A stretch of DNA of 64,000 nt from an uncultured Planctomycetota bacterium (GCA_963752285.1 CAVVXN010000001.1:736001-800000); one strand, 5' to 3'. Positions 34,948 to 38,557 are shown, numbered from the stretch's first letter. Notes: generated from the sequence alone by a model not told the origin. Program-made: numbers and translations.

Positions 34948-36435
34948 ATGCAACGGACACCCGCCTCGACGACGACCGCCACCCGTTCGTCCGCGCGAAC
35001 ACGCGACGCGTGCGCGCGCGTCCCCGTCCACGGCGAGGAGCGGCGCCGCATCGTCGCCGCGATCCGCACCGCGCTGCGCGGGCGGGGCCGCACCCGGCGG
35101 GACGCCGAGCGCGCGCTCCTCCAGCACCCGCGGCACGTCCCGGCGCACTGGATCCCCCTGGTCCTCGCCGAGCGCGACGCCATGCGGCGCGAGGGCCGTC
35201 CGCCGCGGGGGCTGGCAGGCCGCGTGGACCGGCTCCTCCTCGCCATCGCCGACGAGAGCGCGCGCCGCCGGGTCGAGCGACGGAGCGTCGCGCCGCCGGG
35301 CATCCGGCGCGTGCACGGCCTGACGGCCGGCGCGCGGACGGGCCGCCTGCTCCGCGCGCTCTTCTACCTGGCGCCCGATCCCGTCCTCACGGTCCGCGCG
35401 TCCGGACGCGTGGGGCTCTGGAGCCGGGCGGGCGTCGCGATCTCGGGACGCCGCCGGCGCGACCTCCTGCGCGACGGGGCGCGATCGCTGTTCACGGACG
35501 CCTCCGCGCTCGACGAGATGCTGAAGGAGCTCGAGGACGCCTCCGCCCTCGTGACGCGCGAGGAGCGGCTGCGCCGCGCGGACGGGGCCGAGGTCCCCGT
35601 GCGGGTGTTCGGGGCCCGGCTCGGTCCCGACACGGGCGACCGCCGCGATCCCGACCGGCACCTCTTCTTCTTCCACGACCTCACCGAGGTCCAGCGGATC
35701 CGGAGCCGGTTGATCGAGACCGAGAAGCTCTCCGCGATGGCGAAGATCGCCGGCAGCGTGGCGCACGAGTTCCGAAATCCCCTGAACTCGCTCTTCCTCT
35801 CGACGGACCTCCTCGAGGACGAGCTCTCCGGCAGCGGGGCGCCCGAGGAGGCCATCGCGCCGACGCTCGCGGCGATCCGCGAGGAGATCGAGCGGCTGAA
35901 CCAGATCATCAACCACTACCTCTCGCTCTCGAAGGTCGCGATGAACACGCCCGAGGTCGTGGACCTCGGCTCGGTCGTCCAGGAGTTCGCCGGCGAGTGG
36001 GCGGAGCGCGCCGCCGAGAAGGGCATCGACCTCCGCGTGCGCGTGCACCCGGGTGACCTGTCGGTGACCGCGGACCCGAACCAGGTCCGCCGCGTGCTCG
36101 TGAACCTCGTCGAGAACGCGTTCGACGCCCTCGACCTCGCGCCGGAGCGCGGCGGCGAGCGCCCGGGCGGGGGGGCGATCACGCTGGCCGTCCGGCCGAT
36201 GCGCCGGACCGCGAAGCTGACGGTGAAGGACAACGGTCCGGGGATCCCCGAGGACCTGAAGGCCCGGGTGTTCGAGCCGTTCTTCACCTCCAAGAGCCGC
36301 GGCTCCGGCCTCGGCCTGTACCTCGTGCGCGAGATCGTGCTCGCGCACGGGGGCGGCATCTCGCTCGCCTCCACCGGCGGCCGTGGGACGACGGTGGCGA
36401 TGCACTGGCCCCGGCCGGAGGGTGACTCCCGATGA
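34948..36435 (+). CDS. PAS-domain sensor histidine kinase (NtrB/AtoS-like)
   Basis: APDPVLTV (PAS), EKLSAMAKIAGSVAHEFRNPL, NLVENA, DNGPGI, FFTSK..GSGLGL. Start uncertain (alternative about 35182). Confidence 0.88.
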   Translation: MQRTPASTTTATRSSARTRDACARVPVHGEERRRIVAAIRTALRGRGRTRRDAERALLQHPRHVPAHWIPLVLAERDAMRREGRPPRGLAGRVDRLLLAIADESARRRVERRSVAPPGIRRVHGLTAGARTGRLLRALFYLAPDPVLTVRASGRVGLWSRAGVAISGRRRRDLLRDGARSLFTDASALDEMLKELEDASALVTREERLRRADGAEVPVRVFGARLGPDTGDRRDPDRHLFFFHDLTEVQRIRSRLIETEKLSAMAKIAGSVAHEFRNPLNSLFLSTDLLEDELSGSGAPEEAIAPTLAAIREEIERLNQIINHYLSLSKVAMNTPEVVDLGSVVQEFAGEWAERAAEKGIDLRVRVHPGDLSVTADPNQVRRVLVNLVENAFDALDLAPERGGERPGGGAITLAVRPMRRTAKLTVKDNGPGIPEDLKARVFEPFFTSKSRGSGLGLYLVREIVLAHGGGISLASTGGRGTTVAMHWPRPEGDSR

Positions 36436-37871
36436 CGACCGCCGCCGATGTGGCGCTCCGGATTCTCGTGGTGGACGACGACCGGAACAGCCGCGAGTCG
36501 TTGGGGCGGGCGCTCCGGCGGGACGGCTACGAGATCCTGGTGGCCGAGAACGGCAAGGTCGCCCTGGAGGTGGCGCGGGAGCACGAGGTGGACCTCGTCC
36601 TCACCGACCTCAAGATGCCGGGCCTCGACGGGCTCGACTTCCTCGAGGGGCTGCGCGTGGTCCGGCCCGACGTGCCGGCCATCCTGATCAGCGCGTACGC
36701 GAGCGTGGACACGGCGGTCAAGGCCGTCCGCCGCGGCGTGAGCGACGTCCTCGAGAAGCCCATCCGGCTCCGGGACGTCCGGCGGGCGATCAAGCGCGTC
36801 GTCGAGACGCACCGGATCCCCGTGCGCGACCGCTCGCCGGGCCGCTCCACCGGGAAGGCGCCCGCCGTGCTCGCGCCCGAGAACGGGCGGCTCATCGGCC
36901 GGAGCCCGGCGTTCCTGGAGGTGATGGACGTCGTCGCGCGCGTCGCGCCGGTGGACAGCACGGCGTTGCTCCTCGGCGAGAGCGGCACGGGGAAGGAGCT
37001 GATCGCCGACGCGATCCACGACGCGAGCCCCCGGCGTATGGGCCCGCTCGTCAAGGTCGCGTGCGCGGCCCTCGCCGAAGGCGTGCTCGAGGCCGAGCTG
37101 TTCGGGAGCGAGAAGGGCGCGTACACCGGCGCGCACGCGCTGCGCAAGGGCCGGTTCGAGCTGGCCCACCGCGGGACGCTCTTCCTCGACGAGGTGGGGG
37201 AGATCCCCCTCGCGCTGCAGGTCAAGCTGCTCCGCGTGCTCCAGGAGGGCGAGTTCGAGCGGGTCGGCGGGAGCGAGACGATCCGGACGGACGTCCGCGT
37301 GATCACCGCCACGAACCGCGACCTCGAGGCCGAGGTGGCCGAGGGCCGGTTCCGCGAGGACCTCTACTGGCGCCTCAACGTGATCGCGATCCGCGTCCCC
37401 CCGCTGCGGGACCGGCCCGAGGACGTCCCGATCCTCGCGCAGCACTTCCTCGACAAGTACATCCAGGCGACGGGCCGGAAGCGGGGGCTGGCCTTCGCTC
37501 CCGACGTGATCCCCGCCCTGCTCGACTACCGCTGGCCGGGGAACGTGCGCGAGCTCGAGAACGCGATCGAGCGGGCCGTCGTGCTCGCGCGCTCCGACGT
37601 CGTCACCCGGGAGGACCTCCCCGATCCCGTTCGACGCGCCGAGGGAGACCCCGCTCTCCAGCGCCGTGTCGTGGTCCGGTTCGAGGTCGGTCAGAGCCTG
37701 GAGACGCTCGAGCGCGAGGCGATCCGACGCACGCTCGAGGCGGTCGGCGGCAATCGCGAGGCGGCGGCGACGATCCTCGGCATCGGTCTCGCCACGCTCT
37801 ACCGCCGCCTCCGCGAGATGGGCGACGACGTCGAGCAGATCGAAGGGCCGGGACTCTTCGAGAACGCGTGA
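36432..37871 (+). CDS. NtrC-family sigma54-dependent response regulator
   Basis: REC domain (VVDDD, DLKMP), GESGTGKE, GAYTGA, LFLDEV, WPGNVREL, Fis-type HTH (AATILGIGLATLYRR). Confidence 0.95.
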   Translation: MTTAADVALRILVVDDDRNSRESLGRALRRDGYEILVAENGKVALEVAREHEVDLVLTDLKMPGLDGLDFLEGLRVVRPDVPAILISAYASVDTAVKAVRRGVSDVLEKPIRLRDVRRAIKRVVETHRIPVRDRSPGRSTGKAPAVLAPENGRLIGRSPAFLEVMDVVARVAPVDSTALLLGESGTGKELIADAIHDASPRRMGPLVKVACAALAEGVLEAELFGSEKGAYTGAHALRKGRFELAHRGTLFLDEVGEIPLALQVKLLRVLQEGEFERVGGSETIRTDVRVITATNRDLEAEVAEGRFREDLYWRLNVIAIRVPPLRDRPEDVPILAQHFLDKYIQATGRKRGLAFAPDVIPALLDYRWPGNVRELENAIERAVVLARSDVVTREDLPDPVRRAEGDPALQRRVVVRFEVGQSLETLEREAIRRTLEAVGGNREAAATILGIGLATLYRRLREMGDDVEQIEGPGLFENA

Positions 37872-38013
37872 CGCGCGCGATGACGACGCGCGCGCGTTCG
37901 CGCGCGCGTCGCGTGTCCACGCGTCGCCGCGCTTCGCGTCGCGCCTCGGCGACGTGTCCTCGCGCGTCTTCGTCCACGTGTTCTCCACCGCGCGCGCACG
38001 CGACACGAGCACG

Positions 38014-38067
38014 CTCATCTTGAGAGGGTGAACGTGTCGAACACGTGCCGCGTTTCTCATTTTGAGA
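38014..38067. promoter_or_regulatory. Paired palindromic upstream activator sites (bEBP enhancer)
   Basis: CTCA-TCT-TGAG (38014-38024) and TCTCA-TTT-TGAGA (38055-38067); centres 42 bp apart; AT-rich against a very GC-rich background. Confidence 0.65.
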
Positions 38068-38112
38068 GTCGGAGCACGCTCGAAGTGGTGTGATCCCCCT
38101 CGAAGAGCCGTG

Positions 38113-38128
38113 CGGCACGGAAGTTGTT
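38113..38128 (+). promoter_or_regulatory. Putative sigma54 -24/-12 promoter
   Basis: CGGCACGGAAGTTGTT versus consensus TGGCACG-N4-TTGC: correct spacing, with GC>GT at -12. Confidence 0.65.
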
Positions 38129-38360
38129 GTGAACAGGGCGTGCGTGTGTAGCGCACGTGATCGGACCACTGACATGCCCTGTGCGCGTGGTACGCGCGGT
38201 GATGTCGGAGGGATCCGCGATCCTTTTCACGTGAAGAGTCGGTGAGCCCGGGTCCACCGTCGCGGGGCGTTTCGAGCCGCGCGCCGGGGACCCGATCGGC
38301 CCGGGTCGATCGAGCTCACCCGAAGCGCCCGTGCTCGAGACGGACGCATGGAGGCAGAGC

Positions 38361-38489
38361 ATGGCAGCGAAGAGGAAGAAGGGCACGCGCAAGAAGGCCG
38401 CGAAGAAGGCGACCCGCAAGAAGGCCGGCCGGAAGAAGGCCGCGAAGAAGGGGACCCGCCGCAAGAAGGCCACGCGCAAGAAGAAGTAG
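38361..38489 (+). CDS. 42-aa Lys/Arg-rich histone H1/protamine-like small protein
   Basis: GGAGG SD then ATG; MAAKRKKGTRKKAAKKATRKKAGRKKAAKKGTRRKKATRKKK*; all Lys codons AAG; followed by a terminator. Confidence 0.85.
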   Translation: MAAKRKKGTRKKAAKKATRKKAGRKKAAKKGTRRKKATRKKK

Positions 38490-38518
38490 CTTCCCTCGCG
38501 AACGCGATCGAAGTCCGA

Positions 38519-38557
38519 GAGGCCGCCGCGCCGGGGCGCGGCGGCCTTCGTTCGTTT
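38519..38557 (+). terminator. Intrinsic terminator after the histone-like gene
   Basis: 11-bp perfect stem GGCCGCCGCGC/GCGCGGCGGCC (38521-38546), 4-nt loop, then TTCGTTCGTTT. Confidence 0.8.

Follow-up and report, generated by a model that had tools for sequence, protein, structure and literature searches.

Hc2 of Chlamydia is an unstructured polycation built of Lys/Arg/Ala repeats, with 165-237 aa and a length varying through Lys-rich pentamers according to the accessible part of the source (PMC2848022). Its gene, hctB, is given in the available portion of PMC12282069 as one of two genes bound by the sigma-28 RNA polymerase, i.e. it uses a dedicated alternative form of RNA polymerase with a tiny regulon, and the accessible part of PMC7482065 presents hctB as having no sigma-54 promoter. 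The H1-like AlgP of Pseudomonas aeruginosa is a Lys/Ala-rich repeat polycation of a free-living bacterium connected to stress/starvation physiology, for which a role in polyphosphate granule spacing is reported in the available part of PMC9239181. On the regulatory side, the NtrB/NtrC pair acting on glnAp2 combines a kinase and an activator of REC-AAA+-HTH_8 architecture with two phased palindromes about four helical turns apart and a -24/-12 promoter. Here we provide an analysis of a 64,000-nt stretch of DNA (the window) from an uncultured Planctomycetota bacterium (GCA_963752285.1, CAVVXN010000001.1:736001-800000; genome G000, 4.64 Mb), in which a gene for a stand-alone 42-aa polycation lies behind a candidate sigma-54 promoter with putative upstream activating sequences (UAS), next to genes for a histidine kinase and a bacterial enhancer-binding protein (bEBP) of the NtrC family.

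The locus shares the kinase/activator architecture, the two phased palindromes and the -24/-12 promoter with NtrB/NtrC and differs from it in an apparent one-gene regulon, in a conserved GT at -12 and in the target gene being mostly convergent on the regulator gene. With Hc2 the peptide shares the repeat-built composition, the length variation through Lys-rich repeats and an apparently tiny regulon under a dedicated form of transcription, differing in size (42 aa here and 18-133 aa in relatives) and in that its binding to DNA would be assumed by analogy. Chlamydia and Planctomycetota are both members of the PVC phyla. The repeats of AlgP form the tail of a larger protein and consist of Pro-rich KPAA units, in contrast to the peptide described here, which is stand-alone, has no proline (0/42; its orthologs have few or none) and shows no KPAA domain. 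The likeness to the C-terminal domain of linker histone H1 and to protamines lies in the composition (about 45% K, 21% A and 18% R, with some T/P), in the lack of a fold and in a switch-like deployment, the latter suggested here by the regulation, whereas the peptide is a bacterial stand-alone mini-protein with neither a globular winged-helix domain nor demonstrable homology. Within the open literature, subscription journals not being covered, we found no H1-like gene controlled by a bEBP and sigma-54 and no description of such peptides in Planctomycetota. Comparing sequences, we consider it probable that the window holds a dedicated kinase/bEBP sigma-54 circuit driving a mini-protein that coats DNA (or another polyanion), and an H1/Hc2-like polycation appears to be the only target of this two-component circuit.

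The polycation gene and its probable control elements in the window

The elements of the locus, with positions counted from the first letter of the window, are the following:

34948-36435, plus strand: soluble sensor histidine kinase with PAS-like region, HisKA and HATPase_c (Pfam)
36432-37871, plus strand: NtrC-family response regulator/bEBP with REC, AAA+ sigma-54 interaction and Fis-type helix-turn-helix (HTH) domains (Pfam)
38013-38025, no strand assigned: putative distal enhancer (UAS) palindrome GCTCATCTTGAGA, centre at -95 from the -24 GG
38055-38067, no strand assigned: putative proximal enhancer (UAS) palindrome TCTCATTTTGAGA, centre at -53 from the -24 GG
38113-38127, plus strand: sigma-54-type -24/-12 element CGGCACGGAAGTTGT, with GG at 38114-38115 and GT at 38126-38127
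38139-38360, plus strand: predicted 222-nt leader, from the predicted start near 38139 to the ATG
38350-38354, plus strand: Shine-Dalgarno sequence (SD) GGAGG, 6 nt 5' of the ATG
38361-38489, plus strand: gene of the 42-aa polycationic peptide (MAAKRKK...TRKKK), by translation, with orthologs at 24/25 loci
38519-38558, plus strand: intrinsic-terminator-like hairpin with T-rich tail (terminator scan and fold)

The open reading frame (ORF) 38361-38489 had been proposed as an unannotated gene in an earlier reading made from the sequence alone (the sequence-only reading). Translated from its ATG it gives MAAKRKKGTRKKAAKKATRKKAGRKKAAKKGTRRKKATRKKK, identical to the peptide proposed there, and our count (K18, R7, A9, T4, G3, M1; no residues of the hydrophobic class) agrees with the stated 25 of 42 K/R and the lack of acidic residues (D/E 0). 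The gene's own GGAGG and the strong terminator, both part of the same proposal, were located as well, the terminator as a hairpin at 38519-38548 with 13 pairs, 11 of them G-C, a fold of -44.7 kcal/mol and a T-rich tail. The ORF is made of Lys-rich repeats with 15-nt and 27-nt periods, and, as in Hc2, these tandem repeats are accompanied by a length variation through copy number. Long spurious ORFs overlap the small gene at 38057-39040 (minus strand) and 38242-38661 (plus strand), typical of high-G+C DNA (the window has a G+C content of about 74%), and these could displace the true small gene in automatic annotation.

The kinase and bEBP genes overlap by 4 nt (ATGA), in which the stop of the former meets the start of the latter. 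The kinase is matched by HisKA (44.1 bits) and HATPase_c (88 bits), and the bEBP by Sigma54_activat (226 bits), Response_reg (98.5) and HTH_8 (44.3), showing a GAYTGA loop, the Walker A motif GESGTGKE and a DLKMP acceptor region with D59 as predicted acceptor; REC, AAA+ and Fis-type HTH domains thus occur together with a partner kinase, as in the NtrC family. This bears out the pair named by the sequence-only reading except for the PAS assignment, the PAS matches reaching 21.7 bits, just under the Pfam cut-off of 22.6. The best-scoring models for the bEBP are of the AtoSC and ZraSR types, and none of the NCBIfam equivalog levels was reached (AtoC 461.7/714, NtrC 412/558.6, ZraR 394.2/760 bits), nor was an equivalog cut-off reached in the NCBIfam scan of the kinase. 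The genome encodes rpoN on contig C5 (TIGR02395, 386.7 bits, cut-off 277.35).

The extended sigma-54 consensus is YTGGCACG-N4-TTGCW. CGGCACG at 38113-38119 provides a corresponding -24 context, the spacing to the -12 element is exact and TTG is present there, from which a transcript start is predicted near 38139. The two palindromes CTCA-N3-TGAG seen by the sequence-only reading both exist, with centres 42 bp apart and about 77 and 119 bp 5' of the predicted start, the second CTCA starting at 38056 (TCTCA at 38055). Each site giving two strand matches, the 8-base CTCA-N3-TGAG has 42 matches, i.e. 21 sites, in the 4.64-Mb genome and is not remarkable by itself; the extended TCTCA-N3-TGAGA occurs there once, as the proximal UAS, and the promoter pattern GGCAC-N5-TTGT is also rare, with 4 sites on both strands. 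A scan for sigma-70 promoters between 37700 and 38900 returned 0 sites. A short hairpin, CCGTGCGGCACGG at 38108-38120, was flagged as terminator-like, which we rejected in view of its overlap with the -24 element and its lack of conservation.

The predicted leader has a fold z-score of -1.9. It contains the palindrome TTCACGTGAA at 38226-38235, preceded on its 5' side by a T-run. This palindrome does not vary among the four closest loci, has only two occurrences in the 4.64-Mb genome and could be the site of a second regulator or an RNA element. An Rfam scan of 37000-39500 gave two sub-threshold chance matches and none for the leader. Of the sequencing runs listed as containing this DNA, six are DNA runs with small shares and none is an RNA run.

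Conservation in two families and linkage to the two-component pair

We queried a set of 40 related genomes with the bEBP protein and found one clear ortholog in 24 of these (57-83% identity; paralogs at most 52%). The small gene was examined at 25 loci, the window counted, belonging to two families (f1 and f2) of one Planctomycetota order, and 21 of its ORFs are complete, i.e. 20 of the MAA type and one starting with MAKKK (locus L039). At 24 of the 25 loci a Lys-rich small ORF adjoins the bEBP gene; for the remaining one (genome G023) no small ORF was found in the 1.2 kb available, and its promoter module was found at the end of another contig. The start reads MAA[KR][KR]K in the 20 MAA-type ORFs, most of the 21 complete orthologs end in a C-terminal K/R run, and their lengths span 18-133 aa with a median of 82. 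Taken together, they contain 45% K, 21% A, 18% R, 9% T and 1.8% P, D/E being zero, and two orthologs (L025 and L028) have no Ser or Thr. RGGAG precedes the start by about 5-13 nt in all 21 upstream sequences examined. Because the frame stays open through repeat expansion and contraction, with start, SD and stop conserved, in a background of 70% G+C and more, we conclude from this comparison that the small ORF is a real gene.

Three copies of the small gene (L013, L019 and L038) are cut by contig ends, and for two of them, L038 in genome G018 and L013 in genome G022, a promoter module matching the copy was located on a different contig. Assembly breaks within or next to the Lys-rich repeats, leaving the two halves of the gene at the ends of separate contigs, are consistent with this and are likely a general cause of the under-reporting of such genes in metagenome-assembled genomes. 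Genus g6 (G019 with L039, G023 with L015, and G006) stands apart with a 21-aa version of the peptide starting with MAKKK, a -12 TTGA and one degenerate enhancer site, G006 having a partial activator match alone beside the module; the system may be decaying in this genus.

For the upstream regions, 10 f1 loci and 9 f2 loci were compared, with L027 and L039 treated separately. The sequence-only reading had staked its proposal on the conservation of UAS and promoter in relatives, and these are kept in every related locus with upstream sequence. A -24/-12 element YGGCA(C/T)G-N4-TTG(T/A) lies upstream of 21/21 complete genes: GGCAC-N5-TTGT is found at 19/20 MAA-type genes, the twentieth (L027) has GGCATG-N4-TTGT about 660 nt upstream, and the MAKKK gene (L039) has GGCACG-N4-TTGA. 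The promoter consensus across loci, YGGCACGGAWSTTGTW, matches the extended sigma-54 consensus except for the -12 C. In each of the 10 f1 loci there are two TCA-N3-TGAGA palindromes, whose centres lie 41-42 bp from each other, the distal one at -93 to -95 and the proximal one at -52/-53 relative to the GG; both are retained in L027, with a spacing of 40 bp, and L039 has one full and one partial site. In f2, CTATCA-N3-TGAGAA is present at -82/-83 in 9/9 loci, and one or two further sites are found more distally, 210-289 bp upstream; these form a pair with a spacing of 41 bp in 6/9 loci and of 31 bp in one. The sequence between these enhancer/promoter islands does not align among loci. The palindromes at -95/-53 are thereby conserved in position next to a bEBP gene, which is consistent with their being enhancers.

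In 23 of the 24 related loci the bEBP gene has a kinase ortholog beside it; the L027 stretch showed none. The small gene runs in the same direction as the bEBP gene in four loci, i.e. the window and its three closest relatives, and converges on it in 20 loci, with enhancer and promoter on the far side. The position of the small gene right after the kinase/NtrC regulator, as first described, therefore holds as adjacency in 24/25 loci, while the same-strand order is confined to these four. As the orientation differs with the kinase/bEBP adjacency retained, the comparison indicates that at least one inversion has turned the whole cassette (enhancer, promoter, gene and terminator) round together. 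The trio of kinase, bEBP and peptide is the sole gene set common to f1 and f2. Searching 401 genomes of the phylum with a strict UAS-plus-promoter pattern returned 11 genomes with a match, one per genome in nine f1 genomes and two strays, and the reversed pattern used as control returned 0 matches in the same 401 genomes.

Two genes downstream of the cassette belong to its context:

38630-39322, plus strand: weak RdgC-like protein (PF04381 25.4 bits, cut-off 25; NCBIfam 19.8, cut-off 324)
39387-40772, plus strand: Kdo/WaaP-type protein-kinase-fold protein (family search)

Both adjoin the small gene only in f1; in f2 the far-side neighbours are a peptidase, a Ddl-like ligase, a thioesterase and a TPR-GreA fusion. 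Comparing the window clade with the 20 other loci (L021-L040 compared), the Kdo-type kinase and RdgC-like genes have exchanged places as well. We rejected the peptide as a leader for the downstream RdgC-like gene, since a terminator separates the two and since the small gene does not precede the RdgC-like gene in 20 loci. Phosphorylation of the Thr residues in KKATRKK repeats by the Kdo-type kinase was set aside because L025 and L028 have no Ser/Thr and in f2 this kinase does not adjoin the locus. A 472-aa protein at 40812-42230 (minus strand), with many EF-hand repeats and weak dockerin-like matches, is kept near the locus in f1.

Alternative promoters, activators and ligands

Several observations concerning promoter, activator and peptide weigh against a dedicated circuit with a DNA-coating product. 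At the promoter, the canonical GC is not present at -12, the dinucleotide there being GT in the window as in 20/21 loci, GA in 1/21 and GC in none. GGCAC-N5-TTGT has 4 sites on both strands of the entire genome and is not enriched compared to TTGA (9) and TTGG (8), TTGC (18) being enriched. Moreover, the f1 leaders are long and variable, from 127 to about 650 nt. A -12 that is never GC, the lack of genome-wide enrichment, a long and moderately structured leader and the absence of 10 exact peptide sequences from a 15-billion-protein collection would suit a reading in which GGCACG-N4-TTGT is the site of another protein and no sigma-54 promoter, or in which the ORF is untranslated and the locus encodes a regulatory RNA. 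Outside the -12 C, however, the extended consensus, the exact spacing, the palindromes at enhancer distance and the adjacent bEBP all fit sigma-54, while SD, ATG and stop are conserved, the frame is kept from 18 to 133 codons and Rfam gives no match, making this reading very improbable. The sequence-only reading of a two-component sigma-54 system agrees with the conserved UAS/promoter geometry, the linkage and the presence of rpoN, and the -24/-12 element at 38113 stands with its position; it needs correcting in that the -12 is a GT variant. The -12 element is said to be linked to closed-complex tightness by work from the Gralla and Buck laboratories.

Concerning the activator, each genome has roughly 39 bEBP paralog matches, so that another paralog could be the activator, and genome G012 (85% complete) has the module without a detected bEBP ortholog. 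In addition, the genes are convergent in 20/24 loci and have there no shared transcript or control region. These points would be accounted for if not the neighbouring kinase/bEBP pair but another paralog or a different TCTCA-N3-TGAGA-binding factor drove the promoter. Against this, the adjacency has outlasted both the inversion of the cassette and, between the two families, the full turnover of the genes on its far side. All 25/25 bEBP orthologs share the recognition helix ATLYRRL, from which 13 G000 paralogs differ, and this invariance matches that of the palindrome core. Furthermore, a relaxed pattern, which recovered 5/5 positive controls, found the module in only two of 10 f1 genomes without full-length ortholog (G006 and G012), in G006 at 0.7 kb from a partial bEBP fragment of 65% identity, and in none of the other eight (55-90% complete), i.e. 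the module is missing in 8/10. Finally, among 80 bEBP relatives in genomes of other species, the peptide gene and module accompany only the three true orthologs. We regard a different activator as quite unlikely, and the pairing of this regulator with this target, which is about as strong as evidence from sequences gets, as a strongly supported inference.

For the peptide, no Pfam or NCBIfam family matched the 42-aa sequence, and a word-seeded HMMER search over 309 candidates (23-74 aa only) gave none with E <= 0.001. The 133-aa ortholog reaches 12.2 bits (E 0.2) with Pfam HC2 (PF07382), for which the cut-off is 40, and two other orthologs gave no match to it. At the level of sequence families, the small peptide can thus not be shown to belong to Hc2, and the term DNA-condensing, drawn from its composition, is plausible. 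The exact look-up in the 15-billion-protein collection found 0/10 peptide sequences present, and therefore gene callers miss the small gene or start it elsewhere. The ESM Atlas contains unnamed clusters of 43-55 aa, one mostly from Planctomycetota, and the closest family with a name is HC2 (0.89, to be taken as a lead only).

The genome encodes a second lysine-rich protein outside the window, at G000:C3:337096-337329 on the minus strand (locus L133:394-630), namely a 78-aa histone-fold (DUF1931-like) protein. Its residues 23-77 match 9qt0_A with an E of 9.7e-10 and the Bdellovibrio histone entry 8cmp with an E of 0.07, while residues 1-21 form a lysine-rich tail, MAARKKKTAKKAARKAGRAKP, beginning like the stand-alone peptides of the relatives. 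The SD region of this gene, GGAGGCAGA, resembles that of the small polycation gene, and the tailed histone-fold protein is single-copy in 39/40 genomes of the order. According to the available part of Hocher et al. (PMC10627809), most bacterial singlet histones have no such tails, and histone genes persist in Planctomycetota. Because the tailed histone-fold protein is core in the order, a cell with the inducible polycation probably already has histone-based chromatin. Further lysine-rich tails were observed in the same genome, one on a large ORF on C1 around 807160 (minus strand) and two N-terminal ones on two paralogous small proteins of unassigned family at C5:2162711 (plus strand) and C5:2185616 (minus strand). 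The large ORF on C1 is a 964-aa open frame, which we take, without a family-library scan, to be a type I topoisomerase.

With the circuit being the same, the peptide might coat polyphosphate granules, RNA/ribosomes or another anionic polymer instead, with a role in storage, granule organisation or translational shutdown. Polyanions are indistinguishable by composition alone, DNA would already be served by the core lysine-tailed histone-fold protein, and the extreme length variation of 18-133 aa fits a role as bulk counter-ion. The accessible part of PMC9239181, moreover, reports an influence of the H1-like AlgP on the spacing of polyphosphate granules. The conserved trio, on the other side, includes no gene for polyphosphate or the ribosome. 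Of the polycations most similar in composition, those with a tested function, namely Hc2 (PMC2848022), the C-terminal domain of H1 and the protamines, bind DNA. On balance we hold a ligand other than DNA to be doubtful, at a probability clearly above that of a different promoter or activator.

Proposed circuit and its meaning

In the dedicated circuit that we favour, a putative signal would cause the cytoplasmic PAS-type kinase to phosphorylate the NtrC-family regulator at the predicted acceptor D59. The phosphorylated bEBP would assemble on the two TCTCA-N3-TGAGA palindromes and, using ATP, open the sigma-54 holoenzyme complex at CGGCACG-N4-TTGT, the dependence on sigma-54 and the bEBP being what we infer from the conserved geometry. 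The resulting mRNA, with its leader of about 222 nt, strong SD and intrinsic terminator, would be translated into the 42-residue unstructured polycation with a charge of +25. This in turn would coat a polyanion, most likely the chromosomal DNA, in a manner resembling histone H1 tails, protamines and Hc2, with compaction, protection or a global silencing as the outcome. A sigma-54 promoter is silent as long as its activator is absent, which suits a product that would be harmful in growing cells. By analogy, a sigma-54 promoter with a dedicated activator appears to do here the job that sigma-28 control does in Chlamydia.

A further step, which we put forward tentatively and consider possible but less than likely, is a signal-gated chromatin switch, in which the linker-histone/protamine-like mini-protein, flooding the cell from the single sigma-54 promoter, would bring the histone-coated DNA into a compact form suited to rest or stress resistance. 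If true, such a switch, triggered by a one-gene regulon, would parallel in a free-living organism the Hc1/Hc2 transition of Chlamydia and would resemble, in a bacterium, chromatin of the histone-plus-H1 or histone-to-protamine kind.

Apart from its conserved GT at -12, the candidate sigma-54 promoter is a textbook one, and this deviation constitutes a natural experiment on tightness versus inducibility. The small gene itself, with 0/10 exact sequences present, represents a gene class systematically missed by gene callers and protein databases. Planctomycetota are known for their compact nucleoids, and chromatin-state switching outside Chlamydia is poorly known; the locus would offer for this phylum a complete sensor-to-effector circuit readable from the sequence.

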